Shown: positions 7,378 to 24,000, counted from the first letter of the stretch. The stretch is 24,000 nt of DNA from Desulfurococcales archaeon (GCA_015521705.1 WANR01000001.1:1-24000), one strand, 5' to 3'. Numbers and translations are program-made. The notes: generated from the letters alone by a model not told the origin.

Positions 7378-7466
7378 CCTTATACTAATTTTCTTTTTCT
7401 CAGCTCTATTAAAGAGATTGGGTGCGGTGCTTGGATCAATTGCCAGCGAGGAGAAAGCAGGGCAAC

Positions 7467-9290
7467 ATGATAACGGTGCTGATACTGATCTTTTTAATCC
7501 TAGCCCAAACCATAGAGGGCTACAATGCTACGGCCACAGAGAATAGTACGGTTCCTATAAGGGCTAGAATCAGCGTTCCTGCAGTTACAGAGGACGGGGG
7601 CTCCAGCATAATAAGTGTAGACATCGAACTGGCTGTTCCCGGTAATGGCAGTATTTTGGTGATTTCTGAGGGAGAGATCGACGAGACAACGGAATCTAGC
7701 ATGAAAATGGCTGTAACCACAGGTCTCCTGATGGCCGGTGTCAATTTCATGGAGGTTAACGCGGTGGTCAGGATAAATACTAGGGGCCTAATAGCGGGGC
7801 CCAGTGGTAGTTTCGGTGTAGCGTTAGCAACATACATGCTAGCCTCCGGTTTGAGCCCTTATCTTGTCGAAGGCTATGCGATAACCGGGGCCATATCGCC
7901 TGATGGGCTGGCTTCAAGAGTGGGATCCGTGTCTCTTAAATGCAAGGCTGCTGAGAGTGAGGGCCTCAAACTAATATATCCCCTGGCAAACCTGTCACCA
8001 GCTCTCATAGACGACTGTCCCGGCGGGGTTCCTACGCCGGGCGTCATAAACGCCACCTTAACCTTGACTGGTGCCGGCAAGCTGAATCTATCCATTGAAG
8101 TATCTATGCCTGAAGAGTTCCAGGAGGCTATGAGGGAGGCTGTAGGAAACCTTACCAGAGAACTAGAAGAGCTAGCTGAAAGGGAGGGCCTAGAGATACC
8201 ACCTACAATAGGTTACCTGGTCAACCAAAGCCTTAGACTGAGCAGCGAGCACCCCTACGCCGCCGCCAGCTATGCTTATAGAGCACTGCTAGGACTATAC
8301 ACTATTTATTATGCCATGCTCTTGAATGAGGGAAGCCTTGAACAAGTAGTAGCTGAGGAAACAACACGGCTGGGCTCCGAGCTGTCACGGCTGGAAGCCA
8401 TACTCTCCCGTGGAGAGCCTACTGGTTCTATCTATTACGTTGAAATGAGGGCTACAGCATATACAAGGCTGGCCGAGGCCTATTCCGTGCTACAGAGAGC
8501 CCAGGAGCTAGCATCAATAGAAGCCCCCATCGACGAGATAGCGAGCCTACTAGCCACAGCCCAGGCACGCATTGCCAGTATAGAGTCCTGGATAAACGTT
8601 TCTGAAAGGCTCTCAAATAAAGGCCCGCTAATGGACACGGAGTCTCTTGCAAGGCTTGAAAATGGTCTAAGAGCCTATATCGAGACGTCGGTCGACTACT
8701 CTCTGTCATTGATAAGATACTCTATTAAAAACTATGTACTGCCCGAATTCGTTAAGGCTAACCTACAAGTCTATCTAGACTCAGTAATCGACATTATGGA
8801 GAGAGCCGAGAGCTTTAGAGAGAGAGGAAACCTTGTGGCGTCTATAGGTTTTCTCCGCGAAGCCCTTTCAGAAAGCCTCTCAACCATTTTCACTCTCTCA
8901 GCCACCCAGGGAGGCGAGGGGGTCATTCAGGGCTACCTAGATGAAATAAGAAACATTTATGGCATGTTGCTGGCGCGGGTAGCCTCTAAGGGATACCCCG
9001 GAGGCCTGGCTCCAGCCTATGCAGACTATTCCATGGTTCTGGTAGGAGAGGATCCTAGAGCAGCGGTCGCTCTCATGGAAGAGGCAATCGCCTCTGCCAT
9101 ACTCTGGAATATCCTAGTCGTTACAGCTCTTAGTGGGAAGGAAGCTGCTGGCTCCCTAATAGGTGGCGCGCTGGCTACGAGTATAGAGGATCCTGTATTA
9201 ACGGCCGTGATAGCTATGGTATCGTACTCTATAGGCGTCATAGCTTCTACCCTAATAGCTAGGCTCGCTAGGAGGGGTAGATCGCTATAG
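7467..9290 (+). CDS. Exported membrane-anchored protein: N-terminal Lon-protease-like (S16) domain, long helical domain, C-terminal TM anchor
   Basis: The signal/anchor is MITVLILIFLILAQTIEG. The Lon_C-like motifs are LIAGPSGSFGVALA (Ser, nt 7803-7805) and ITGAISPDGLASRVGSVSLKCKAAESEGLKLIYPLAN (Lys). The C-terminal TM is VIAMVSYSIGVIASTLIA. Many N-x-S/T sequons are present. The track ORF starts at GTG 7422, but the TATA-like TCTATTAAAG (~7404-7413) favours ATG 7467. Confidence 0.7.
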   Translation: MITVLILIFLILAQTIEGYNATATENSTVPIRARISVPAVTEDGGSSIISVDIELAVPGNGSILVISEGEIDETTESSMKMAVTTGLLMAGVNFMEVNAVVRINTRGLIAGPSGSFGVALATYMLASGLSPYLVEGYAITGAISPDGLASRVGSVSLKCKAAESEGLKLIYPLANLSPALIDDCPGGVPTPGVINATLTLTGAGKLNLSIEVSMPEEFQEAMREAVGNLTRELEELAEREGLEIPPTIGYLVNQSLRLSSEHPYAAASYAYRALLGLYTIYYAMLLNEGSLEQVVAEETTRLGSELSRLEAILSRGEPTGSIYYVEMRATAYTRLAEAYSVLQRAQELASIEAPIDEIASLLATAQARIASIESWINVSERLSNKGPLMDTESLARLENGLRAYIETSVDYSLSLIRYSIKNYVLPEFVKANLQVYLDSVIDIMERAESFRERGNLVASIGFLREALSESLSTIFTLSATQGGEGVIQGYLDEIRNIYGMLLARVASKGYPGGLAPAYADYSMVLVGEDPRAAVALMEEAIASAILWNILVVTALSGKEAAGSLIGGALATSIEDPVLTAVIAMVSYSIGVIASTLIARLARRGRSL

Positions 9291-10911
9291 TTTCCGAGGT
9301 CTCGAGGGCCACGCCGAGCACGTAGTCTATGAGTTCGGACGACACCATTATACTTACGCCTGATATTAACAGGAGAACTGAGAAGTAGAAGAAGAAAGAC
9401 GTGCGGGTTCCAGGCATAACCCTGACTATGGCTAAGCTATTAAGTACGCTGGCAACAGCTATGAGGATTATGGACATGGTTACAAGATAAGGGGAGTCTA
9501 TAGCCTGGAAGGGGAACACGCTTATAACCTCCTCTGGTGCTTGTTCCATGATGTTTTGTAGTATGGAGGAGAACGCCAGCATTAGTTTAGAAATGAATAC
9601 AAGGATTATGACTACAGCCGCGTGCATAAGGTATAGCGTGGACTCGAACGTTTTGGCTACCTGCAACCTCTGCTTTCTCAGCCTTACCATTTCATTGTGG
9701 TGGTCTGAAAGCATTATACCCACCTTCTCAGGATCCCCGCCGTTCTTTAATGAATCAATGAATATGGTGACAGCCCTGCGCACTAGCTCGCTACCCGTCT
9801 CGGCTGCGAAGAGCCTCCATGCAGCTTCAGGCTTTAGACTATTGGCTAGTCTAGAGTATAATCTCCTGAGATAGGTGGCCAGCTTTCCCAGCTGGCTGAT
9901 AAGTAGGGGCTCTAGGGCTTTAACCATGTCTGGCAGTGTCGCTAGGTGCGTACCAAAGCTCCTAATGAATATAGGGAAGAAGTCGTCCACATTGTTTATA
10001 CTAGCCTCCACCCTTTTAGCCATGATCCCCAGGGGGAGCAATATTATTCCTGAAATGAGGAGGCCCCTGGCAGCCTCTTCGAAGGAGTCATTATACTTCA
10101 GCAGGTATAGGGAGCTTATCAGGGAGGCTAGGGCCAGGCCGGCAATGCCTGTTATGGAAAGAGCCTTGTATTTAAACAGCCTGGGCGATCCATAAAACTC
10201 GAAGGGCTCCCTGCCAACTAGCATGTAGAGCAGCGTTAGCATGCCGACAAGAGCTACCCCAACACCCATATATGAGGACGCTATTATGGCTAAGTTGCCC
10301 CCAAAGAAGAAGGCCATAAGCATGAAAGTAACAAGCACAAATATTAGCGAGCCAAGAATAGTCACGTATATTCCCATGAAGACCCTGGCAGTGTTCGTCA
10401 TCCTGTGATAGGCGTTTACATACTCGCTCATTAGAGTCCTATACTCTCTTTCCAGAAAAGTCTCTACATCCTCGCCGACAGCTAGAACCCCCGACATTCT
10501 CGAAAGCAGATTCTTCAGCACCAGGTTGTCGGCCTTGGATCCTACTATTCTGGTTGCCTGGGAGAAGCTATAGCCCCACTCCTTTCCGAGCCCGTATATC
10601 TTCCTCATGTAACGCGAATATGCCGGGTAGTTCTTCAGGTTCTTCGACACAGACTCGAAAAGTGCCGAGACTGGAGGCTTACCAGTTGCAACGCTTCTCA
10701 TGTGGAGGAGCATGTAGAGAAGGTCGTGGTCTATTATGGCCATGCTTCTCCGCACAAGAATCCTCCCTACCCCAAACCACAATATGACGAGGGTCGACGA
10801 GGCTGCCGCCATTACGGAGAGCGGGGGCTTTAAGAGTAGCAATAGTGCAGCAGCTAGCGTGGCTGATAACGACGCTGAGACCACGGCTCTTAGAGTCAGC
10901 CTGTCTTCCAC
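9268..10911 (-). CDS. arlJ: Archaellum polytopic membrane platform protein ArlJ (FlaJ)
   Basis: A 547 aa multi-TM protein with two cytoplasmic helical domains (T2SS-F-like), immediately after arlI. The GTG start is preceded by AGGTGA, which spans the arlI stop. Confidence 0.85.
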   Translation of the reverse strand: MEDRLTLRAVVSASLSATLAAALLLLLKPPLSVMAAASSTLVILWFGVGRILVRRSMAIIDHDLLYMLLHMRSVATGKPPVSALFESVSKNLKNYPAYSRYMRKIYGLGKEWGYSFSQATRIVGSKADNLVLKNLLSRMSGVLAVGEDVETFLEREYRTLMSEYVNAYHRMTNTARVFMGIYVTILGSLIFVLVTFMLMAFFFGGNLAIIASSYMGVGVALVGMLTLLYMLVGREPFEFYGSPRLFKYKALSITGIAGLALASLISSLYLLKYNDSFEEAARGLLISGIILLPLGIMAKRVEASINNVDDFFPIFIRSFGTHLATLPDMVKALEPLLISQLGKLATYLRRLYSRLANSLKPEAAWRLFAAETGSELVRRAVTIFIDSLKNGGDPEKVGIMLSDHHNEMVRLRKQRLQVAKTFESTLYLMHAAVVIILVFISKLMLAFSSILQNIMEQAPEEVISVFPFQAIDSPYLVTMSIILIAVASVLNSLAIVRVMPGTRTSFFFYFSVLLLISGVSIMVSSELIDYVLGVALETSETIAIYPS

Positions 10912-10921
10912 GAGTGGTCAC

Positions 10922-13900
10922 CTACAAAAGCCTGTCCTGCTGTAGCAGCCTGTAGGCTTCCTCTACCCCTATACTATACGCCTTCACTATGGCCTTGTAC
11001 ACATCGAAGTAGTCCAGCACACCCTTGCCAGCTAATAGCTTGAGGAACCTGGCACGCAAGTCTAGCTCCTCGTAAATCTCTCCGATTCTACGCCTCGGTA
11101 TGCCCCTCATCACAGCTATCTTCTCCTCTAGGAGGTAACTAGAGCCCCTGCCAGAGAACATGAACCTGTCAGTCACAGGATCCCATGTGAATACCGGGAC
11201 TGCAGCTATAGCGCCTGAGTCGGGATCGTAGCCTATTATCTCGTTTATGCTTAGAACCCTCCTAGCAGGGAAGCCCTTCACGTAAACAGCGCTCTGGAAC
11301 CACGCAATGTTCAAATTGTCAATGTTTGTCTTGGGCACGTTTATAGGGTGATTCGTTAGCCTCTGGATCAGTCTCTCGAGATTGGCGGCGTGAAACGTGG
11401 CCATTACAGGGTGACCTGTCTGCATCGCCTGGAACGCGATGTTCCCCTCAGCCCCTCTTATCTCACCTACTATTATGTAGTTGGGCCTCTGCCTGAGAGC
11501 GGCTCTTAGGAGGTCAAACATTGTCACACTACTCTCTGCTTTACCAGTGTCCCTGGTGAGTTCTCTAGTCCAGTTGGGGTGAGGTAGCACAACTTCAGCC
11601 GTGTCTTCTATGGTGACGATCTTGGCCGTGGGCCGTATAAAGGCGGAGATGGCGTTCAAAGACGTTGTTTTACCGCTTGCAGTATTATGAGCCAAAACAC
11701 CCCCCAGGCCTGCTACAAAGTTCTCGGTGCCTGGTACTGAAAGATCATAGACATACCTAACCCTCTCGCAGCAGGGCTTAACCTCTATTACTTCGTCTAG
11801 AAACACATCGCCTAATTCTTCGGGTTCTGCCCTGGCAGCATACGCTTCTACAACTAGAAGCCCCATGCCACCTGCATGGTGCTGATAGTGATTCTCGCTA
11901 GCTGCTGGGGCGAGGGATCTGCTTTGGCCCCTAACGGCCTCGCACAGTTTCTTGCTGGTCTTACAGAAGAGATCCGACGACTTTCCAGCAGCTGAGACTA
12001 GCTTATTAAGATCCCTAAGCTTGATCTCAAGAAAACTCTCTCTTCCAGGCTTTCCAAGCTCTATAATAGTTACTATGCCAAGCGCGTGTAATAGCAAGGG
12101 AAGCCCATGGAGTAGTGAACGAGAGCCAATGCCTAGCTTTACAACATCGCCTACTACTTCTACATGCTTGGAGCCAGCTATGAATCCCAGCAGGAAAGAG
12201 GCTATCTTGCTCTCTTTGAGGCCAAAAATAAAACCGGGAAGCCTCCTATAGTGCTCCTCGTTGGCTATTCCTAGGGCCTCGATTATTGAAGCGAAAACTT
12301 TGGACTTCACCACTATCCTGTGACTTCTACCATTTAGACGCCTGGCTTCTACCCCGTAAATCCTTCTAATGAGGTTAGAAACAATGTCGGATCCTTCCAG
12401 GTTTTTCGGCGAGAGCCAAACACTATTCATGGACTCCGACACATTAGCGTTTGCCATTAAAAACCCTAGAAGAAAAGCAAATTCATGATCCACCTTTATG
12501 ATAGGCCGGATCCTAACCTTTGCTTTCCAAGAAGTCAGTCTTCCCCCTACAATAGAGAACCCGATATTTTCTGGGCCCCCTATGCCAACTGCTTGTCCGC
12601 AACCTTCAGCTCCTCCATCCCTGTCTCTAAATAGGTCAGACAAGTCCAGCGAGTCCATATCACTGAATCCTGACGGCGTCCTAAGCGGCACTATTATTTT
12701 GTCGCCAGGCCTAAGCTTTTCCACGCTTATAGGGGCTATGCTGCCTCCGCGGACTGTGAATAAGCTGTGGTCGCCTGTGACCCTGATCCTTCTACCAGTC
12801 CTTGTTACTACCTCATAGATCCCGGAGAAAGGCTTATGCCTGATGAAGCCTCTTATAGGCCTGAAAACGAACTTGAAGGTTTTAGGGTCTAGGGTCAAGG
12901 CATCGTACTCCCAATACTTATCTTCAAGCTCTTCAATCCTAAGTATCTCCAAGAACCCTGTCTTCCTGTTCCTGACAATTACGGGCTCTCCCTCAGCTAT
13001 GCTCTCGCCGCAGATGAAAACACTCATACCCTCACTGAGCATCATCCACATATATGCCGCTATAACGTGGTCGAAGGTGCCCCACTTTATTAGCTGGGTT
13101 AGGCTGACAGGCACCTTAGATACTTTCCTGATGGTGAAGTTGGATCCTCTTAGACTCACATCGGAGCCGAAAACGATGTTTATCCTGCTACCGTCTGGCA
13201 GGGTGGCGTCAACTATGGGCCTGGCTCTTGTCAGTGGTTTCCCTATTTTCTCTCCCAGCTTTATTATGAACTCGTCCAACTCCCTCTCGCTAGAGAAGCC
13301 TACATTGGACTCCATAGAGCCGAACATTTTATGGACAACGTAGATCGGGCCTATCCCATTAGCAGTTATATCCTCAAGATAGGGATCCCTCAGGAAGGGC
13401 TCGAGAAGCCCGACGCCTACCTTGTCTCTTATAATGTGATACTTTAGGTAGTCGAGATCCCTTTTGCCGACTATGACCCTTAGCCCCTTAGTTCTCGGCT
13501 TCGAATAGTCGACATTCTTGTCAGTCGGCAATACAACGCTAGATAAGGCCTCTAGTAGTATATACTTTTTCTCCTCGCTAGATGATGGGACCTCCTCTCT
13601 TATAGCGAATGGTAGTAACTCCTCTATTATGTCTAGCAGGCTCTTGGGAGGCCTGGGCGGTTCTATAACTATATACCTGCTATACCCCGACTCCCCCCTC
13701 TTACTAAGTGCATGTATGAATATGCCAGAGCCTACAGGGTAAACTATGTTGAAGCTCTTAGCATTCTTCATGGCAGAAGGTATTTTTTCTACAAGCTCCG
13801 GCCTTTCACCCATCTCCTCTTCTACCTTCTTCATGTATTCTTTCAAGTAGTGGGGCTCCTTGCCAAAATCCGGAGGTTCTTCCCTCTTTCTCGACCTAGC

Positions 13901-13936
13901 CCTTTTACCTCTCCTCACGGAGATGCCGAGAGCCAC
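10922..13936 (-). CDS. arlI: Archaellum motor ATPase ArlI (FlaI), interrupted by an intein in the Walker A loop
   Basis: Exteins carry IEPPRP, DPYLEDI, RPIVDATLPDGSRINIVFG, FICGE|TASGKTTSLNAI, RQRPNYIIVGEIRG and GHPVMATFHA. The track ORF starts at GTG 13945. That GTG lies inside a perfect SD, GGAGGTGAT, so GTG 13936 is the more likely start. Confidence 0.93.
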   Translation of the reverse strand: MALGISVRRGKRARSRKREEPPDFGKEPHYLKEYMKKVEEEMGERPELVEKIPSAMKNAKSFNIVYPVGSGIFIHALSKRGESGYSRYIVIEPPRPPKSLLDIIEELLPFAIREEVPSSSEEKKYILLEALSSVVLPTDKNVDYSKPRTKGLRVIVGKRDLDYLKYHIIRDKVGVGLLEPFLRDPYLEDITANGIGPIYVVHKMFGSMESNVGFSSERELDEFIIKLGEKIGKPLTRARPIVDATLPDGSRINIVFGSDVSLRGSNFTIRKVSKVPVSLTQLIKWGTFDHVIAAYMWMMLSEGMSVFICGESIAEGEPVIVRNRKTGFLEILRIEELEDKYWEYDALTLDPKTFKFVFRPIRGFIRHKPFSGIYEVVTRTGRRIRVTGDHSLFTVRGGSIAPISVEKLRPGDKIIVPLRTPSGFSDMDSLDLSDLFRDRDGGAEGCGQAVGIGGPENIGFSIVGGRLTSWKAKVRIRPIIKVDHEFAFLLGFLMANANVSESMNSVWLSPKNLEGSDIVSNLIRRIYGVEARRLNGRSHRIVVKSKVFASIIEALGIANEEHYRRLPGFIFGLKESKIASFLLGFIAGSKHVEVVGDVVKLGIGSRSLLHGLPLLLHALGIVTIIELGKPGRESFLEIKLRDLNKLVSAAGKSSDLFCKTSKKLCEAVRGQSRSLAPAASENHYQHHAGGMGLLVVEAYAARAEPEELGDVFLDEVIEVKPCCERVRYVYDLSVPGTENFVAGLGGVLAHNTASGKTTSLNAISAFIRPTAKIVTIEDTAEVVLPHPNWTRELTRDTGKAESSVTMFDLLRAALRQRPNYIIVGEIRGAEGNIAFQAMQTGHPVMATFHAANLERLIQRLTNHPINVPKTNIDNLNIAWFQSAVYVKGFPARRVLSINEIIGYDPDSGAIAAVPVFTWDPVTDRFMFSGRGSSYLLEEKIAVMRGIPRRRIGEIYEELDLRARFLKLLAGKGVLDYFDVYKAIVKAYSIGVEEAYRLLQQDRLL
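11684..13003 (-). mobile_element. Intein (440 aa, Ser1 ... His-Asn / Thr+1) with a LAGLIDADG-like endonuclease domain, inserted in the arlI P-loop
   Basis: Covers aa 315-754 of the ORF. Block A is SIAEGEPVIV, block B VTGDHSLF, block F VYDLSVPGTENFVAG and block G GGVLAHN, followed by T. The C-terminal boundary codons were checked on the sequence (att=Asn at 11684-11686, agt=Thr at 11681-11683). The N-terminal boundary was derived from the ORF frame. Confidence 0.9.
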
Positions 13937-13948
13937 AAGTATCACCTC

Positions 13949-14686
13949 CTAAGCCCGCGCCAGCGCTATGGGGACAATCTTAATGCCGAAGGCAGGGTCT
14001 ACATCGTACGTTATTGTAGACTCGAAGGAGGTAGGGGCACCTTTTAGCTTGATTATCTTCATGACCTTGACGCTTTTACCGCCAACGACGGCCGTGGAGA
14101 GCGAGATATAACCATCGCATATAGCGCGGGCCCGAGTTACGAGATCCTCTCTCACAATGTTGGGGTGTATGGTAAGTATCACGGATTTTCCTCTATCCAC
14201 AAGTATCCTTGTCCTGTTGAAGTAGTTCATAACGTTAGATGGAGTAGCGTAGATCGCTAGATGGCTCAGCGAGTCTACCACAAAGACGTCGTAAGAGTCT
14301 ACAGCTTCAAACATGTAATTTCCCAGGATAGAAAGGAGCTTCGAAACGTGCTCTTTCACCCATTTAGCCCCGGGAAGCTGTAGAGAGTAAACCGTGAGGT
14401 ACCCCTTCACGTAGTAAGTCGACAAGTCTACCCCGGCCGACCTAGACTTCTCAACGTACCCCCTAGCAGTTAGCTCGCTCGTTACAACAAGGACCCGGAG
14501 CTCGCTGACCAGAGCCCCATAGACTAACTGCTGTGCAAGCACTGTCTTTCCAGTGCCGTGGATCCCCTCTATTATTATGAGTGATGGGTGGGGTATTCCT
14601 CCTCCAAGCTTCATGTCAAGCTCCTCGTTACCTGTCGTTATGAGCCTTCTCCTATCCCCATTACTGGGCCCTGCCTGGTGAGCCAT
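13949..14686 (-). CDS. arlH: Archaellum KaiC-like ATP-binding protein ArlH (FlaH)
   Basis: ITTGNEELDMKLGGGIPHPSLIIIEGIHGTGKTVLAQQ (Walker A) and FVVDSLSHL. ATG 14686 is preceded by GGGGGTG. The track ORF starts at TTG 14701. Confidence 0.9.
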   Translation of the reverse strand: MAHQAGPSNGDRRRLITTGNEELDMKLGGGIPHPSLIIIEGIHGTGKTVLAQQLVYGALVSELRVLVVTSELTARGYVEKSRSAGVDLSTYYVKGYLTVYSLQLPGAKWVKEHVSKLLSILGNYMFEAVDSYDVFVVDSLSHLAIYATPSNVMNYFNRTRILVDRGKSVILTIHPNIVREDLVTRARAICDGYISLSTAVVGGKSVKVMKIIKLKGAPTSFESTITYDVDPAFGIKIVPIALARA

Positions 14687-14688
14687 CT

Positions 14689-15192
14689 CTAGCACCCCCA
14701 AAGCCTGTAGTAAGCCTTACCTCCCCCACTATCGACGAAGATGAAAGTTATGGGAGCCCCCACATCCGCGGGAGGGCTTAGAGCTCCTTTGATGACGGCT
14801 ACCTCTCCAGGATATATGCTACCGTAGGGTTGAAGAACGGCCCCATTGGCTATCATAGCTACTAGGCTCCAATCTTTATCATGATACAGGATCACGGTTA
14901 CGTTACTGCCCGTAACATTGTCCTTATATGAGGCTATTATCTCGCTGGCGTTAAAGTCCCAGAGTACGCCAGGACCCCTGTTCTCTAGGTGTAAATAGAA
15001 GGCGTCGCCCGCACAGGTAACGTTGGCATAGATTATTGATAGAAGGGCCCCATAATAGGGTCTCTCAACAGCTTCTATAGCACTGACAGCAGTGTTATAG
15101 AGAAGCTCCGCCATGACCCCTGAAAGGACCGAGACAGCTATGATCAGTGCAACGGCCACGAAGCCTGAAGAGATCACAACGCTAAACCCCAA
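14689..15192 (-). CDS. arlF: Archaellum stator/S-layer-binding component, ArlF (FlaF)-like
   Basis: An N-terminal hydrophobic helix (GFVAVALIIAVSVLSGV) is followed by a beta-rich domain. Its position between arlG and arlH matches the crenarchaeal order B-X-G-F-H-I-J. The F versus G assignment rests on synteny only. Confidence 0.6.
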   Translation of the reverse strand: MGFSVVISSGFVAVALIIAVSVLSGVMAELLYNTAVSAIEAVERPYYGALLSIIYANVTCAGDAFYLHLENRGPGVLWDFNASEIIASYKDNVTGSNVTVILYHDKDWSLVAMIANGAVLQPYGSIYPGEVAVIKGALSPPADVGAPITFIFVDSGGGKAYYRLWGC

Positions 15193-15206: not shown

Positions 15207-15698
15207 CTATGGGAGCGGGTAGACCTCGCGGATCGTGGCCCCTACTGGTAGTATCATTCTGAATTCGACCGGAGAATCTATCCTGGTGCTCGAATAGACG
15301 TGAATGATGAAGGTTTCATCCTTCTCCCAGACCCCGTCTCCATCGCCTTTCTCGGTGTAGTTCCAGTAGCCAGCCCCTCCAGAAGCGTTGTACTGGAAGA
15401 GGAATAGCTTCCCCCTGTATGTCCCCAGATATACGTCAGAGGACTCTATGGAGGTAACGCTGGCTGAGCCCACGTTTTTGATGTAAATACTATACTCGTA
15501 AACATTGCCAACAACCCTCTCTTCCATATAAGCGACGACCAACTGGACTCTTAGAGCATCTGTTTTGATGCTCAGAACCTCGGAGAGAGTACTACTTATG
15601 TCGTAGACTCTAAGTAAAACAACAACCGAAAAGGTGGCGGCCAAGCTCACGGCTACTATTGTTAGTAGCGCGTGAGCTATGACTGTCGTTTCTCCCAA
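15207..15698 (-). CDS. arlG: Archaellum component ArlG (FlaG)-like
   Basis: An N-terminal helix (VIAHALLTIVAVSLAATFSVVVLL) is followed by a beta-rich domain. It follows the arlX-like gene and overlaps it by 22 nt. The assignment rests on synteny. Confidence 0.6.
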   Translation of the reverse strand: MGETTVIAHALLTIVAVSLAATFSVVVLLRVYDISSTLSEVLSIKTDALRVQLVVAYMEERVVGNVYEYSIYIKNVGSASVTSIESSDVYLGTYRGKLFLFQYNASGGAGYWNYTEKGDGDGVWEKDETFIIHVYSSTRIDSPVEFRMILPVGATIREVYPLP

Positions 15699-16813: not shown

Positions 16814-17467
16814 TTAGCTCATGTCCACCGCTCCATCTGTGGGTAACGATGCTGGCACTATCCTTTCAACAGTCAGAGGGGCTCCGTCAGCTACTCTCAG
16901 TTCTACAGAGATCTTAGTGTAGGAGCCGTATCCTGCGTTCAGCTCTACAGCAAGTACTGCTTTCTCGCCGAATTCTAGAACGTTGTCGTTGTCTCCCTTG
17001 AGCACTATTATCTTAGCCTCGGGCTTTGTAGTATTGCTTGGGGACCCTGTTGTTAGCTTGCTCAGTATCGTGCTTAGGTCAGCAGTTATAGCGCTGGTTA
17101 GCGACGTGTCTATACCCGTGTATATGTTTTCGTAGGCCACGCTACTACCATCTGGCTGTGTCACTATTAGCCTCACGGATGTCCTGTCTACAGATAGATC
17201 CACGCCTTCTCTTCCCGGGGCAACCTTTAGCGGCACAATTATCGCGTCGACAGTGCTACTAGTCACGTTACCCGTCACTGAGCCGTCGATCTCCAATGCT
17301 GTAGATGCCTGAGCTAGCCCTCTCCCAATGGTTTCTTTGCTCTTCTGTGTTGTGAACATCCCCATGTTCAGGGCTACGAATGCCAGCGCCGCGGCTACTA
17401 TGACGAACGCTATCATTACTATCGCTGCTTCTATGCCCACGATACCCTTTCTTTTCTTCCTAGCCAC
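16814..17467 (-). CDS. arlB: Archaellin ArlB (FlaB) with class III (type IV pilin-like) signal peptide
   Basis: RKKRKG/IVGIEAAIVMIAFVIVAAALAFVAL is a typical archaellin N-terminus. The C-terminal domain is beta-rich with N-x-S/T sequons. The track ORF starts at ATG 17509. GTG 17467 is preceded by GGGGGTGA and gives a short signal peptide, MARKKRKG. Confidence 0.9.
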   Translation of the reverse strand: MARKKRKGIVGIEAAIVMIAFVIVAAALAFVALNMGMFTTQKSKETIGRGLAQASTALEIDGSVTGNVTSSTVDAIIVPLKVAPGREGVDLSVDRTSVRLIVTQPDGSSVAYENIYTGIDTSLTSAITADLSTILSKLTTGSPSNTTKPEAKIIVLKGDNDNVLEFGEKAVLAVELNAGYGSYTKISVELRVADGAPLTVERIVPASLPTDGAVDMS

Positions 17468-17688
17468 TCTCTCACCCCCTGCTGGGGGTCGGTTTCTGGC
17501 TTCTGGCATTCGAGGGTCTAATTAAGCCCCTAATGGCGGCGACCGCTAGCCGAAAACATCCCCGAGGCGGCTCGATTGTTGGTAGAGGACAGTCTATGAG
17601 CCGTCTACTCTCTGCGCCCCGTGATCGCCGCGGATAGTGGCAACAAATTATCTTCAGAAAGCCTCAAAAGAAGAACAGGTGGGATTAC

Positions 17689-18189: not shown

Positions 18190-19062
18190 ATGACAATGAT
18201 AGATCAGAGGAGCCCCCACAGCCTCGACAGGGCCAGGCTAGACCTGCTGCGAAAGCTCGACAGCATAATAGACTTCTCCAAATCTACCATACAGCTTCAA
18301 ATAGTCCTGGCTCTAGCCTTAAACGGCGACAAGTTGTCGACCTCAAAACTCTCACGAATAGTAGGCGAGAGGCGCAAAGCCGTGCTAGACGCTCTTAGGA
18401 AGCTAGAGTACAAAGGTCTCATAAGAAGGGTCAACAACGTGAATTCGAGCGAGATAGTATACGAGCTAACGGATCTGGGGAAAGCTTTCACTAAAGGGCT
18501 CGTGAAACTCCTTAATAGTAGCACCGGAAACACCCATGCATACAACCTATTAGGAGACGAACTAACAGTCAGCCAGAGAATAACCCTGAGATCGAGACTA
18601 GTAGAAGCTGGCTACGCGTACAAGGCTCTCGTAGCCCTTTCACTAGCTCCAAGACACTCGCTGCCCGCAAGAATTCTCTCAAAGTCTCTCGGCATAAGCA
18701 CTGAAAGGCTCATAAGCTACATGGACCTATTCACGACGCCGCCGCAGAGAATCTTCAAAAAAGTCCTGAAACCAGACGGCACAATAATCTATAGGCTAGA
18801 CACTGAAGGCGTCAAGCTACTGGCTAGAATCTCTGAGTCTAAGAAGCTTAGAAGCAAGAAATTAGCCGTAGCCATAGCAAAAGCCTTCGATGCTTATTCG
18901 CAACCTAAAATAATAACTCTAGTGTCTAGCGTCTTATTCTTAGCTAACTCGCTCGTATTACTAATAGTGACCTATCTGGAGTACCCATACATAGGGTTAG
19001 TAGGGTCGCTCCTAGCAGCGCTCTCAGCAGCCTTCATTCTAACCTATTGGTGGAGAGAATAG
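18190..19062 (+). CDS. arnR: Membrane-anchored transcription regulator with two winged-helix domains and two C-terminal TM helices (ArnR-like archaellum regulator)
   Basis: wHTH 1 is IVLALALNGDKLSTSKLSRIVGERRKAVLDALRKLEYKGLIRR...YELTDLG. wHTH 2 is ALVALSLAPRHSLPARILSKSLGISTERLISYMD...YRLDTEGVKLL. The TM helices are IITLVSSVLFLANSLVLLIVTYL and IGLVGSLLAALSAAFILTYWW. It lies divergent to arlB. Confidence 0.6.
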   Translation: MTMIDQRSPHSLDRARLDLLRKLDSIIDFSKSTIQLQIVLALALNGDKLSTSKLSRIVGERRKAVLDALRKLEYKGLIRRVNNVNSSEIVYELTDLGKAFTKGLVKLLNSSTGNTHAYNLLGDELTVSQRITLRSRLVEAGYAYKALVALSLAPRHSLPARILSKSLGISTERLISYMDLFTTPPQRIFKKVLKPDGTIIYRLDTEGVKLLARISESKKLRSKKLAVAIAKAFDAYSQPKIITLVSSVLFLANSLVLLIVTYLEYPYIGLVGSLLAALSAAFILTYWWRE

Positions 19063-20211: not shown

Positions 20212-20985
20212 GTGTTTCAGCGACTGTTTAAGCTCTTTGTCTCTGCTTTTATAGCATCTATACTAGTATTGCCCTTGTTAGTGGTTACAAAACTCTTGAA
20301 TGCAAGCTTGGGGCCTCTGGTCTTTTCCTTTATCTATCTAGGGCTTTTCACGGCTACATACCTATCTATAGGCAGGATCGCCAAGTACTTATTGAAGAGG
20401 TTCTATAACATCTCCTTCATTTCATTTGACGAGTACGGGTGGGTCGATGAAGACGCCTATAACGATGCCAGTGACGAGGAGAACCTATTTATGGTCTGGT
20501 CCTTAGTCAGAGCCCTCTACGGCCACTTATCCAGCAATGAGAAGAGAGACGTGGCCCTGCTGGTTCATGCAGAGGGTACCCCTATATCATCCTATCCGGT
20601 GGAGTGGGTTTTCGAGGATCTAAGCGAAGAGCCCGGCGAAGACTCTAGCGTTGAAGCATATATAAGTGAGAGCGGGGACCTGGTTGTCTGCCTGAGTCTA
20701 GACTACTTCAGAAAGCTCCTGATAATAGTCTCTAGGGGCGAGGGCGAGCTGGGAATAGTGGAGGGCATGGACGAGGCTAGAGCCTTATTCGACACCTCAC
20801 TAGCCATGGCCAGGGCGCTATACAGAGATCTGCAGAGAGATATGGCTCTCTATGTCGCCTATAAGGCGATAGTTAAGCTTGCTAAGAAGGGCTTGAAGGT
20901 TCCAGAGAGAATACTCGAAGACCTCATACCTATAGATAGGCATAAAAAGGCTATGATAATGGAACAGCTGAAAGAAGAGACATAG
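20212..20985 (+). CDS. Hypothetical membrane protein (two N-terminal TM helices, acidic cytoplasmic domain)
   Basis: GTG ORF with an in-frame stop at 20188. A TATA-like ACTATATG lies at ~20171-20178. No recognisable motif. Confidence 0.5.
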   Translation: MFQRLFKLFVSAFIASILVLPLLVVTKLLNASLGPLVFSFIYLGLFTATYLSIGRIAKYLLKRFYNISFISFDEYGWVDEDAYNDASDEENLFMVWSLVRALYGHLSSNEKRDVALLVHAEGTPISSYPVEWVFEDLSEEPGEDSSVEAYISESGDLVVCLSLDYFRKLLIIVSRGEGELGIVEGMDEARALFDTSLAMARALYRDLQRDMALYVAYKAIVKLAKKGLKVPERILEDLIPIDRHKKAMIMEQLKEET

Positions 20986-20991
20986 ACGATC

Positions 20992-21219
20992 TCAGCTGAC
21001 TTCAATACTAATTTCGTAATAGCCGTGGGCGCCCTTGTAGGCGGCCCTCCCTATACCCGAGAATTCTACGGCAGAAACTATTTTATCTACGCATTCCCAC
21101 TGATCAGTCAAAACGATCAGAGTGTCACCACTGGAAGCTAGTCTAAGCTCTCTGAGAGTCTTTATTAAGGGCTCAGGGCACTCGATACCTCTATAATCGA
21201 GAACCCTAGTCTTGCCCAT
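20992..21219 (-). CDS. tusA: TusA/SirA-family sulfur carrier protein
   Basis: VLDYRGIECPEPLIKTLRELRLASSGDTLIVLTD carries the canonical LD.RG..CP.P motif. ATG 21219 (MGKTRVLDY) is preferred over the track TTG at 21243. Confidence 0.8.
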   Translation of the reverse strand: MGKTRVLDYRGIECPEPLIKTLRELRLASSGDTLIVLTDQWECVDKIVSAVEFSGIGRAAYKGAHGYYEISIEVS

Positions 21220-21250
21220 CCCAGAATCCACCAAGGAAAGCAAGCCATCA

Positions 21251-22687
21251 TTACTCCCTTATCTTGAAGGCCTCCAGTATTCTTCGATCCCTGACGTAGT
21301 CCTTAAGTAGAGGCGGTGCCTCGACGTATGGCTCGCCCAGGCTTACGACCTCGCCTATAACGCTGGGCCTGTAACCTCTGCTTCTAAGCTCCCTGACTAT
21401 ATCCCTCTCTAGCTGCTCGGGCACCACGAGCACGAAAGCTCCATTAGTGCCTGAAGTCGCGTTGGGCATGAGAAACCTCGATGAAGCATACTTCGATAGC
21501 TCCGGGAATAGTAGTGGCAAGTCATGGAGCCTTATACCAGCCTTCATCTGCTCTGCCAGCTCCCTCACGACGTATATGCCTGGTCCTGTCACATCAGTTG
21601 TGGCTATAATATGTTCTCCTCTCTCGAACTTCTCGCCATAGTAGGGTAAGTGTTTTTCTATGACTTGGGCGGCCTCCTTGTTGGGCCTGGCTATCGTGTT
21701 AAATGCCTCATCCTTAGCCTTAGCTACTTGCTCGAAAGAGAGGCCCTCCCTTTCCAGGTCTTCTATAAATGCTTCGTCCATGATGGCTGCTAGGTAGACA
21801 TTAATCGGGGCTAGCTCCCCTATAGGTCTTGTGACTACAATCCTGGCCCCCTTCTCGGCTTGTTCGTAGAAGACCGGGGGATGCTTGCGGGTGAACGCTG
21901 TTACTGTGGCTCCTAGTAGCAGCCTTCCCTTTTCCGGCTGTGGTAGCTGGTAGAGGTGCGCGCCGATGGTTCTCGCATATCTCTCCACGTTAGCGGCTAT
22001 CCTCTCCTTGAGGTCATCGCTGGGAGCATTGACGACTGGGGCTATCGTAATATTGCTACTAGCCCCCAGCACGAATAGGTCGTTGAGGGAGTTGCTCAAC
22101 GCTCCTGAAACCTGCCTATAGTCTCCGGGGTCTTCCGTCGGGTCGATTATGTGTATAGTGTCGTTATTAGCCACCCTGTAGCCCTCAGCTCTCCCACTGG
22201 GTTTTATGAAGTCTATCAACATGAAGTCGTCGCCCTCGAAGGGAGTCACTATAGAGTGTCCCTTGCCAACGTAAAGCAGGGCACCCGAAGCTGCGAGGGC
22301 CTCGTAGACCCTTCCTATCCTAGAGAGGAAGTATTCTGGGTCGCCGGCGTACCTCTGATGCACCTGCACCAGGACTATAGCCCTGGACCCGGATAGCCCA
22401 GTTCTTACTGTTCCGAGGCGGCCTGCTTCGTCTCCTAGCCTGAATATCATCCTCTCAATACTAGGCGCCCCCTCTTCGTCTGGAAACACGTCTGCGTCTT
22501 CCCTAGGTGCTATGACAATGTTGGATCCAGCCAGTTTATCGCGTAGCTTCGAGAGAGCCGGGTAGACTACTCTGACAAGGTCCACTTTTACGGCGCAGCC
22601 AGTCGCTAGAGCTAGGGGGTTTACCCCCAGCTCCTTATAGTATTTGATCCTCTCGAGCACCTCTTCCCTACTTGTAACCACCGCCAC
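21251..22687 (-). CDS. Divergent SelD-like (selenophosphate synthetase-like) PurM-superfamily ATP-dependent enzyme
   Basis: ATGCAVKVDL compares with SelD GCGCKI (Cys17 and Lys20 equivalents). REDADVF compares with RDDAAVY. IIDPTEDPGDYRQVSGALSNSLNDLFVLGA compares with TTDFF.P.VD.P..FG.IAA.NA.SDI.AMGG. TTDVTGPGIYVVRELAEQ compares with TDVTGFGLLGHL.EM. At 478 aa it is larger than SelD (~340 aa). Confidence 0.65.
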   Translation of the reverse strand: MAVVTSREEVLERIKYYKELGVNPLALATGCAVKVDLVRVVYPALSKLRDKLAGSNIVIAPREDADVFPDEEGAPSIERMIFRLGDEAGRLGTVRTGLSGSRAIVLVQVHQRYAGDPEYFLSRIGRVYEALAASGALLYVGKGHSIVTPFEGDDFMLIDFIKPSGRAEGYRVANNDTIHIIDPTEDPGDYRQVSGALSNSLNDLFVLGASSNITIAPVVNAPSDDLKERIAANVERYARTIGAHLYQLPQPEKGRLLLGATVTAFTRKHPPVFYEQAEKGARIVVTRPIGELAPINVYLAAIMDEAFIEDLEREGLSFEQVAKAKDEAFNTIARPNKEAAQVIEKHLPYYGEKFERGEHIIATTDVTGPGIYVVRELAEQMKAGIRLHDLPLLFPELSKYASSRFLMPNATSGTNGAFVLVVPEQLERDIVRELRSRGYRPSVIGEVVSLGEPYVEAPPLLKDYVRDRRILEAFKIRE

Positions 22688-22940
22688 CAGCCCCCTTCTT
22701 TATAGTTATTCTCCAAAGGCCGGGCCCTATACTGACAGGACCCTCCACGGAGTATCCAGACTCCCTAGCCGCTCTAGGCACTGTCTCGCACGAAGGCGGA
22801 TTGTCTATTATGACTTCCAACACCTCCCCCTCTCTTATCCTGGCCAGCGCCTTCTTGGTAAAGATCACTGGATACGGGCAAGTATACCCGGTAACGTCGA
22901 GCACGTACACGCCCTCCCCCTTCTTGTACAGCTTAGCCAT
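22668..22940 (-). CDS. tusA: TusA/YeeD/YedF-like sulfur(selenium) carrier protein
   Basis: YVLDVTGYTCPYPVIFTKKALARIREGEVLEVIIDNP is canonical. The ATG overlaps the yeeE stop (ATGGCTAA). Confidence 0.85.
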   Translation of the reverse strand: MAKLYKKGEGVYVLDVTGYTCPYPVIFTKKALARIREGEVLEVIIDNPPSCETVPRAARESGYSVEGPVSIGPGLWRITIKKGAGGGGYK

Positions 22941-24000
22941 GAACCATTACACCCCGCCTATATGCCAGGAAGTAGACGAAAAGTATCCAGGCTACCATAG
23001 AGGCGTATACAAGGGCAAGGCCCACGGCCCAGCCCAGCGCGAAGAGGGGCACCTTTACAGGGGCCAGGCTACCGACAACTACCTCCCTCACGGGCGATAC
23101 TAGTAGAGGATAGCTGGCGACGGCCGCTACGAGGGCTATGAGTGCTTTGATGTGCCCCTCCGCGACCCTCCAAAGGCTGCCGGAAGCGCAGGCTCCGGCG
23201 AGGCTCATGCCGAAGGCGAATATTACCCCGCCTAGAAAGTTCGAGAGGCTTACATACTTCACGTAAACTCCTGGATCCACGTAGCCCATATACTTGAGAG
23301 CCGCGGCTCCAGTGGCTCCAACGATTATGCCAAGAGCTATCCCCACCTGAAGCCTCACACTCCTGACCATTTCAGGCCCTCCAAGTAGGTCCCTGAAAGC
23401 CGTGGCAAAGCAGAACCTCGACCTCTGGATTACTAGGCCCACAAGCACGCCAACCATCGCCAAAGCTGCGAAGAAACCGTTGCCAAAGTAGTTGACAACC
23501 GAGAGTAGAAGGGCAAGAGCCAGGGCTGCCACAAGCAGTCTAGCCCACGCATTGGGCCTAGCAGTGCTGGACGCCTTAACCATAGCCCCCCCAGGGGCTT
23601 CCTCGAGCTCCACCTCGATCACTGAAGCCATCTTCTCCATCTTCCACCTGACATACCTTAGCCCAAGGTAGCCCCCCAAGACAAGTCCCGGCAGCATCGC
23701 GAAGCCGTGGAGGCTGAGAGCAGTCACGGCTGAGAAGAACCCTCCCCAGTTGCAGCCCCAGGCCAGAGCCACTCCAACAGCCATGAGGAAGCCCCCCAGA
23801 GCACCCTCTAAATACTCTATACCGCCTACAGGCCTCCGGGCCTTGAACTCGTTAGCCAGCAAGGCTGCTATGAAAGCCCCGGTCAGCAAGCCAAGGTCAC
23901 CCACGCTAGTCTTGTTAGTAAAGATGCTGGAGTGCTCGAGATCCAGGCCTAGCTGGCTGTAAACACTGGCCCCCCACTCATAGAAGCCCCCGTATATCGT
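22933..24000 (-). CDS. yeeE: YeeE/YedE-family thiosulfate/sulfur (selenium) transporter; the 5' end lies beyond the right edge
   Basis: Polytopic, with conserved Cys motifs: AWGCNWGG, QRSRFCFATAFRD and LAGACASGSLWRVAEG. The frame stays open from 23904 to 24000 (TIYGGFYEWGASVYSQLGLDLEHSSIFTNKTS...), so the track start at 23904 is an artefact. Confidence 0.85.
   Translation of the reverse strand, partial: TIYGGFYEWGASVYSQLGLDLEHSSIFTNKTSVGDLGLLTGAFIAALLANEFKARRPVGGIEYLEGALGGFLMAVGVALAWGCNWGGFFSAVTALSLHGFAMLPGLVLGGYLGLRYVRWKMEKMASVIEVELEEAPGGAMVKASSTARPNAWARLLVAALALALLLSVVNYFGNGFFAALAMVGVLVGLVIQRSRFCFATAFRDLLGGPEMVRSVRLQVGIALGIIVGATGAAALKYMGYVDPGVYVKYVSLSNFLGGVIFAFGMSLAGACASGSLWRVAEGHIKALIALVAAVASYPLLVSPVREVVVGSLAPVKVPLFALGWAVGLALVYASMVAWILFVYFLAYRRGVMVHG

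Follow-up and report, generated by a model that had tools for sequence, protein, structure and literature searches.

The presence of a selD-like gene in a crenarchaeon raises the question of what such an enzyme may activate in a lineage for which no selenium trait is known. The gene in question lies in a stretch of 24,000 nucleotides from a Desulfurococcales archaeon (GCA_015521705.1, WANR01000001.1:1-24000; this whole stretch is called the window hereafter) and is part of a minus-strand operon that also encodes a YeeE/YedE-type permease and two TusA-type carriers, one upstream and one downstream of the enzyme gene. An earlier note, written from the sequence alone, had listed these four co-directional genes, and the open reading frames (ORFs), Pfam matches (Sulf_transp, TusA twice and AIRS_C) and translated motifs bore this parts list out. 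The crenarchaeal context it had assumed was right as well, since the source is a Desulfurococcales metagenome-assembled genome (MAG) and archaeal genes are found across the window, among them an archaellum operon and genes for CDP-archaeol synthase and an archaeal Pus10. The operon is a permease-containing variant of a protein family that has already been described and named. With moderate confidence, as roughly an even call, we read it as a module for sulfur relay and activation, in which sulfur delivered by TusA would be activated at the expense of ATP, probably to thiophosphate, for assimilation.

The enzyme matched the NCBIfam model NF038049 (SelD_rel_HyperS, "SelD-related putative sulfur metabolism protein") with 595.5 bits (cutoff 250), and the match ran end to end, from residues 9-476 of the enzyme to positions 2-465 of the 465 model positions. 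A 100% identical protein from a Desulfurococcales MAG bears the same name at NCBI. The comparison with SelD, ThiL, HypE and PurM that the earlier note had suggested placed the enzyme below the cutoffs of the SelD models TIGR00476 (38.8 bits, cutoff 125) and PRK14105 (43.7 bits, cutoff 291) and of the HypE model TIGR02124 (21.3 bits, cutoff 251.6); the Pfam domain AIRS_C was found with E 4e-5 (24.2 bits, cutoff 23.1). With scores so far under the SelD cutoffs, the enzyme is not a true SelD. An AlphaFold2 model built with 28 homologues had a predicted local distance difference test score (pLDDT) of 90.5 and a predicted template modelling score (pTM) of 0.91, and Foldseek searches with this model gave SelD/SEPHS1 first at E 1e-17, followed by HypE, ThiL and PurM (range 1e-17 to 1e-11). 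Since a family profile searched against the sequences of the PDB retrieved only SEPHS1 (1e-7) and HypE (8e-3), no member of the SelD-related family has a solved structure. The enzyme is, as judged from the model, a SelD-related PurM-superfamily protein with a two-domain AIRS fold, and SelD is its closest family by both fold and profile.

The earlier note had pointed to an N-terminal Cys/Lys motif (GCAVK) and to SelD-like metal and ATP motifs. Indeed, all of them are present, and GCAVK is invariant in 28 homologues (40-59% identity), as are G30, C31, V33, K34, D64, D182, N199, D203 and D365. Seven of these (C31, K34, D64, D182, N199, D203 and D365) make up the SelD catalytic set: in a local alignment with E. 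coli SelD, C31, K34 and D64 correspond to C17, K20 and D51, an hhalign comparison matched N199, D203 and D365 with N87, D91 and D227, and D182 was matched with D68 by motif only. The loop around Cys31 (residues 29-32) has low pLDDT and is the sole disordered part of the AlphaFold2 model. Cys31 is the single cysteine of the enzyme, likewise in the seven closest aligned homologues, and the catalytic position was occupied by cysteine, never by selenocysteine (Sec), in the 28 aligned homologues.

The enzyme thus shares with SelD/SEPHS the PurM-superfamily fold, the C-x-x-K loop and all metal/ATP ligands, but between strands one and two of the N-domain it is longer by about 100 residues. This insertion has a beta-beta-alpha-beta-beta layout and holds the invariant residues R79, Q108, Y128 and K142-G-H-S-I146. 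The canonical 'GGHSI' position of SelD is degenerate in the enzyme, which carries GKGHSI in the insertion instead; the two motifs paired in an alignment that was not significant. When modelled alone (pLDDT 83), the insertion matched HypE best in Foldseek (3.6e-4), followed by ThiL, PurM and SelD. An origin by internal duplication of the N-domain was considered and not adopted, as hhalign was not significant against the canonical region (E 0.06-0.09) or against E. coli SelD (E 0.06), and the model offers a structural hint only. The insertion was also considered as an acylphosphatase-like domain; this was rejected because the real acylphosphatase of the family is a separate C-terminal fusion or gene and the isolated insertion matches chains of the PurM superfamily.

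The family was described in 2014 by Li et al. (BMC Genomics 15:908, PMC4210487) as "SelD-like" in Sulfolobales and Thermoproteales, with conserved Cys and Asp/Asn residues, neighbouring genes for SirA (TusA) and "Prx-like" (DsrE-type) proteins and, in Thermoproteales, a fusion to acylphosphatase. These authors proposed that a thiophosphate compound is made from ATP and sulfide, with an acyl phosphate included in their model 1; they reported co-occurrence with APS reductase in Thermoproteales, stressed 'sulfur-reducing hyperthermophiles' and found no Sec, selenouridine or Se-cofactor trait in the Crenarchaeota surveyed (PMC4210487). The earlier note had held that neither a selenium nor a sulfur reading was a described system. 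This claim must be withdrawn in view of the 2014 family with its TusA neighbour and thiophosphate hypothesis, the name of NF038049 and the NCBI annotation; the sulfur-analogue mechanism given in the note is the published hypothesis of Li et al. A review of May 2026 still treats the function of the family as a matter of speculation, and a literature search for thiophosphate together with TusA, or for selenophosphate together with YeeE and TusA in archaea, found nothing. With the family of Li et al. the window enzyme shares the full-length match, the SelD Cys and Asp/Asn residues and the TusA/SirA neighbour, and relatives in Pyrobaculum show the C-terminal acylphosphatase fusion as described in that paper. 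The window operon differs by the YeeE/YedE permease, by two TusA genes and by having no acylphosphatase and no DsrE-like ('Prx-like') gene. Furthermore, the family was scored absent from 13 cultivated Desulfurococcales in 2014, and the window enzyme comes from a MAG of this order. Restriction to Sulfolobales and Thermoproteales and, in the latter, fusion to acylphosphatase describe the distribution in the 2014 genome set and do not define the family; the window locus extends this distribution.

The positions of the genes and motifs are listed in Table 1. As the earlier note had given it, the permease and upstream TusA ORFs overlap by 8 nt, the upstream TusA and enzyme ORFs by 20 nt, and 7 nt separate the enzyme from the downstream TusA, but two corrections apply to these boundaries: the permease is truncated by the window, and the enzyme start used at NCBI lies two codons later (476 aa), which reduces the overlap with the upstream TusA gene to 14 nt. 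The downstream TusA may start at Met9, to judge from its sequence, in which case the gap would grow to about 31 nt. The order permease, TusA, enzyme was found again in 20 related loci (50-60% protein identity), and L004 and L013 show the exact order of the window, with the second TusA gene.

Table 1 Genes of the operon and motifs of the SelD-related enzyme (positions in the window)
Feature	Positions	Strand	Remarks
Permease gene	22933..24000, 5' end past the window (listed also as 22933..23904+)	-	YeeE/YedE-type; 355 aa or more encoded within the window; leads the operon
Upstream TusA gene	22668..22940	-	90 aa; YedF-like type
SelD-related enzyme gene	21251..22687	-	478 aa; PurM superfamily
Downstream TusA gene	20992..21243	-	83 aa; last gene of the operon
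GCAVK motif, Gly30-Lys34	22586..22600	-	Corresponds to Cys17-x-x-Lys20 of E. coli SelD; lies on the flexible N-terminal loop; checked by translation
Family-specific insertion, residues 69-170	22178..22483	-	About 100 aa, between the strands bearing the equivalents of SelD Asp51 and Asp68
GKGHSI motif within the insertion	22250-22267	-	Invariant in aligned homologues

The permease was identified by Pfam Sulf_transp (1.5e-30, 107 bits, cutoff 27). Its frame contains no stop codon over 22933-24000, so the gene is cut by the end of the window; about 51 N-terminal residues are absent relative to 15 full-length orthologues, and three cysteines are kept in 16/16 orthologues. Because of this truncation the NCBIfam scores are lowered: 58 bits (cutoff 645) and 100 bits (cutoff 400) with the TsuA models, 125.9 bits (cutoff 350) with the YedE/FdhT model and 40 bits (cutoff 200) with another YedE model. 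The upstream TusA (Pfam PF01206, 5.4e-21, 74.7 bits, cutoff 28.6) has the CPYP motif with Cys21 at 22869-22880, confirmed by translation, and a second cysteine, Cys51, within a DNPxSCExVP motif; this signature is invariant in 30 orthologues encoded directly upstream of the enzyme. Its best NCBIfam model was YedF PRK11018 with 61 bits (cutoff 79), and TsuB-YeeD NF041048 gave 43.4 bits (cutoff 147.5). The downstream TusA (Pfam TusA 3.3e-13, 49.7 bits, cutoff 28.6) has CPEP with Cys22, again confirmed by translation, and likewise Cys51; it scored 23.4 bits with PRK11018, below the cutoff of 79, and did not match the TsuB/YeeD model at E <= 0.1. The two proteins of the window are 33% identical to each other, and CPxP is present in 99 of the 101 TusA-like ORFs from related loci. 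YeeE/YeeD are thiosulfate importers (PMC11073785), and YedE co-occurs with SelD in selenium-utilising organisms (PMC5322559). Like the YeeE/YeeD (TsuA/TsuB) pair and the YedE/YedF pair, the latter putatively for selenium, permease and TusA stand side by side in the window with conserved cysteines in both partners, but neither protein attains the curated cutoff of TsuA, TsuB, YedE or YedF, and the window pair is coupled to an ATP-dependent enzyme.

To survey the family, species-representative genomes were scanned with the motifs NNDT..ID and GCAVKVD, which yielded 80 loci. The thermophiles among their sources are Pyrodictiaceae, Acidilobaceae, Aeropyrum, Ignisphaera, Caldisphaera, Acidilobus, Sulfolobales and Thermoproteales; the others are marine (L046, L049, L051-L053, L056, L062, L067) and groundwater (L054, L058) Thaumarchaeota, Hydrothermarchaeales and one contig recorded under the label Acidobacteriota (L055). 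With members outside hyperthermophiles, the family is broader than the 'HyperS' of its model name suggests. When 1.84 billion representatives were searched exhaustively with phmmer, only 128 related clusters came up (40 of them at E <= 1e-30) and true SelD was not reached, so the family is small on this count.

Neighbouring genes were counted over 81 loci, the window included, on ORFs that were called crudely in this analysis and clustered. A TusA gene lies within 400 nt of the enzyme gene in 67/81 loci, and a YeeE/YedE permease stands beside the TusA-enzyme pair in 20/81 and anywhere in the locus in 28/81. Vent Pyrodictiaceae, Acidilobaceae and Aeropyrum encode the permease in the same direction as the enzyme, Ignisphaera divergently; marine Thaumarchaeota have a permease-TusA pair 2.3 kb from the enzyme gene, behind which come two TusA genes and a double rhodanese, with a PEP-mutase gene nearby. 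Loss of the Cys/Lys motif in orthologues or of the gene neighbourhood had been named in the earlier note as speaking against its proposal; as the motifs were invariant in orthologues and the neighbourhood was conserved, neither was seen. Nor did the profile searches assign the enzyme firmly to a non-SelD PurM subfamily with a known function, the third such outcome listed in the note. An acylphosphatase (Pfam PF00708 and NCBIfam) is fused C-terminally to the enzyme in 10/81 loci and encoded directly downstream of it in 38/81, all outside Thermoproteales (e.g. L001:2945-3214), so that it is fused or adjacent in 48/81; these loci lie among L001-L044 and L059 and, in a second set, L064, L070-L072, L074 and L076-L080. 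Where the window has its downstream TusA gene, L004 and L013 also have one for TusA, whereas most other loci have acylphosphatase there. The standalone acylphosphatase neighbour is an addition to the 2014 paper, in which only the fusion was reported. Further phosphatase-type neighbours are a DSP-type enzyme (L001-L003 and L007), a metallophosphoesterase (nine loci) and a HIT protein (six loci). A double rhodanese lies within 1.5 kb of the enzyme in 20/81 loci, and DsrE-like, FCSD-like flavoprotein with DUF1641 and ThiF-like genes also recur. A GT2 glycosyltransferase encoded near the enzyme in Acidilobales and Thaumarchaeota was considered as a SenB-like partner and set aside; its two groups are only 26-30% identical and resemble GT2 enzymes of the HpnB/CruG type.

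A second type of partner is cysteine synthase. In L084 (1382-5493) a distant member, barely above the cutoff of NF038049, heads a co-directional run in which it is followed by a CysM-like cysteine synthase, DUF2061, CysK and serine O-acetyltransferase (CysE), each over its curated cutoff. In L086 (5001-8086)/L087 the gene of a family member (313 bits on NF038049) is overlapped by 4 nt by a cysteine synthase gene, which is followed by a YedF-like TusA gene; nearby genes for an OmpR-type regulator and for a protein of 12,189 residues suggest a bacterial host. Finally, in nine Acidilobales-type loci a cysteine-synthase-like pyridoxal phosphate (PLP) enzyme adjoins the enzyme divergently. This link to cysteine synthase in three separate lineages is not in the 2014 paper. 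A distant member in another setting is P0153: in L082:93-7392 its gene comes first in a series that goes on with DUF6528, a B12-binding radical SAM enzyme, an AAA-type kinase and a PK/HpcH-like enzyme and has the look of a small-molecule biosynthetic cluster, not of a sulfur relay.

From the observed gene order and its conservation, the family membership, the fold and the invariance of the catalytic residues, we infer a substrate, a product, a direction of sulfur flow and a downstream acceptor for the sulfur-activation module. The permease would import sulfur in inorganic form, as thiosulfate or a different sulfane-sulfur compound, and the YedF-like TusA would load sulfane sulfur onto its CPxP cysteine and hand it to Cys31 on the flexible N-terminal loop of the enzyme. 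With the Asp/Asn metal-ATP ligands of the SelD set and Lys34, the enzyme would then phosphorylate the sulfur, with AMP and Pi formed besides the product, either thiophosphate or a phospho-persulfide bound to the enzyme; the downstream TusA, or Cys51 of either TusA, could serve as acceptor or resolving thiol. The activated sulfur would be assimilated, and the likeliest agent is a cysteine-synthase-type PLP enzyme that works by beta-replacement, in parallel to SelD feeding SelA/SepSecS; in relatives an acylphosphatase or another phosphatase may strip the phosphate. SecS, which is a PLP enzyme, takes thiophosphate in place of selenophosphate and makes Cys (PMC4599804); together with the cysteine synthase neighbours this suggests that the enzyme supplies beta-replacement enzymes and that phosphatases remove the phosphate. 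The likeness to the selenium route lies in this use of thiophosphate by SecS and in the encoding of family members beside PLP beta-replacement enzymes. The acceptor would differ, being a free amino-acid precursor and not tRNA-bound. That the whole family consists of true thiophosphate synthetases, with thiophosphate as the natural sulfur donor to PLP enzymes of the cysteine synthase type, a YedE/YedF-like supply and phosphatases that remove the phosphate, is a more specific proposal that we put forward only tentatively and consider rather doubtful.

Several points weigh against sulfur activation as the role of the operon. No acylphosphatase or cysteine synthase gene was found in the 24-kb window, and the downstream half of the model therefore rests on other genomes. 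Three relatives that came from an unbiased search, P0140, P0156 and P0169, have lost Lys34 and the GKGHSI motif, one of them also the Cys, and with NF038049 P0140 and P0156 still score about 226-267 bits; the three may be paralogues without activity, and some other distant members retain all motifs. The motifs in the 80 loci had been used to retrieve these loci, so their conservation there is not independent evidence, and the neighbourhood counts carry the roughness of the ORF calls noted above. The best NCBIfam models of permease and upstream TusA, YedE/FdhT and YedF, are associated with selenium, although both matches are below cutoff. No experimental work on any member of the SelD-related family was found in the literature. 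Biological thiophosphate is not known as a natural metabolite.

The alternative that survives best, although we consider it unlikely, is a dissimilatory role, in which the enzyme would handle sulfur intermediates of energy metabolism (reduction or oxidation of S0 or thiosulfate) together with DsrE, rhodanese and Hdr/SQR-type enzymes; the stress that Li et al. put on 'sulfur-reducing hyperthermophiles' implies such a role. Genes for a DsrE-like protein, an FCSD/SQR-like flavoprotein with DUF1641 and a rhodanese do adjoin the enzyme in loci of Sulfolobales and Thermoproteales, and Li et al. reported co-occurrence with APS reductase in the latter order. But the conversion of ATP to AMP for each sulfur atom would be costly for an energy pathway, the family is also found in MAGs of marine and groundwater Thaumarchaeota and in an operon with CysM, CysK and CysE, and the window holds no dissimilatory partner.

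A cryptic selenium trait, with a divergent selenophosphate synthetase, selenium import by the YedE/YedF-like pair and a selenium-dependent product of some undescribed kind, is improbable in our view. It could draw on the complete SelD catalytic set, on the top models of permease and upstream TusA, on the co-occurrence of YedE with SelD and on a YedE-like protein of Methanococcus, reported as a selenium transporter in work cited in PMC11582611. Besides the sub-cutoff scores of both matches, it has against it that no tRNA gene, and thus no tRNA-Sec, was found in the window, that the window's XdhC is not YqeB and that the catalytic position holds Cys in all aligned homologues. Since no selenium trait is known from any crenarchaeote surveyed by Li et al. 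(2014) and the neighbours of the family are sulfur and cysteine genes (rhodanese, DsrE, cysteine synthase), the selenium reading is disfavoured and sulfur activation is favoured over it. The window does contain, at a distance of 19 kb from the selD-like gene, genes for the maturation of molybdenum hydroxylases, which encode an XdhC-family protein (710-1627), CoxG (1659-2195) and a MocA-like cytidylyltransferase (2261-2872). This cluster was considered as a YqeB-type link between selenium and molybdenum and rejected, as the XdhC ORF had no YqeB match and the cluster did not recur near the enzyme in the 80 loci.

Very unlikely is a chemistry like that of HypE, in which a thiol adduct bound to TusA or Cys31 would be dehydrated or activated with ATP and the acylphosphatase would take the part of the N-terminal domain of HypF, dealing with carbamoyl phosphate or a different acyl phosphate. 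In its favour, HypE ranks second by fold and first among the matches of the isolated insertion, the model of the HypF N-terminal domain also matches the partner acylphosphatase (53.8 bits), and an acyl phosphate features in model 1 of Li et al.; yet the HypE model score stays far from its cutoff, the only Cys sits at the N-terminus within C-x-x-K, as in SelD, whereas HypE has it at the C-terminus, the neighbourhoods showed no carbamoyltransferase domain of the YrdC/Kae1 type and the window operon has no acylphosphatase. That the four genes are chance neighbours which do not act together is hardly credible: it is a general possibility, to which only the operon start outside the window lends anything, and the genes overlap or abut, keep their order in the 20 loci and are joined by an adjacent TusA in 67/81.

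Other genes of the window were noted as well. An ORF on the plus strand (20212-20985, 257 aa), convergent with the operon, had no Pfam or NCBIfam match, and a second one (7422-9290, plus strand, 622 aa) had no match in Pfam, the sole library searched. In the archaellum operon the ArlI/FlaI-type ATPase (10922-13945, minus strand, 1007 aa) is split by an intein (Pfam Intein_splicing, residues 335-754); the genes around it encode two flagellins (16814-17509 and 15207-15698), a KaiC-like ArlH (13949-14701), an ArlJ-like protein (9268-10911) and an ArnR-like regulator (18190-19062).

In sum, the survey corrects the published distribution of the SelD-related family, which is present in MAGs of the Desulfurococcales type, in marine Thaumarchaeota and probably on a bacterial contig, and it names cysteine synthase, acylphosphatase and rhodanese as candidate partners. 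The operon itself, with permease, two carriers and enzyme, is compact and self-contained and would lend itself to reconstitution. Few branches of the PurM superfamily have no assigned reaction, and this family is among them; what it catalyses matters for the question of how sulfur and selenium pathways came to separate. If the more specific proposal of a true thiophosphate synthetase is right, it would be a route of ATP-dependent sulfur assimilation new to any organism, a free-metabolite counterpart of the path from SelD to SelA/SepSecS, and it would employ an internally elaborated PurM N-domain that bears GKGHSI.

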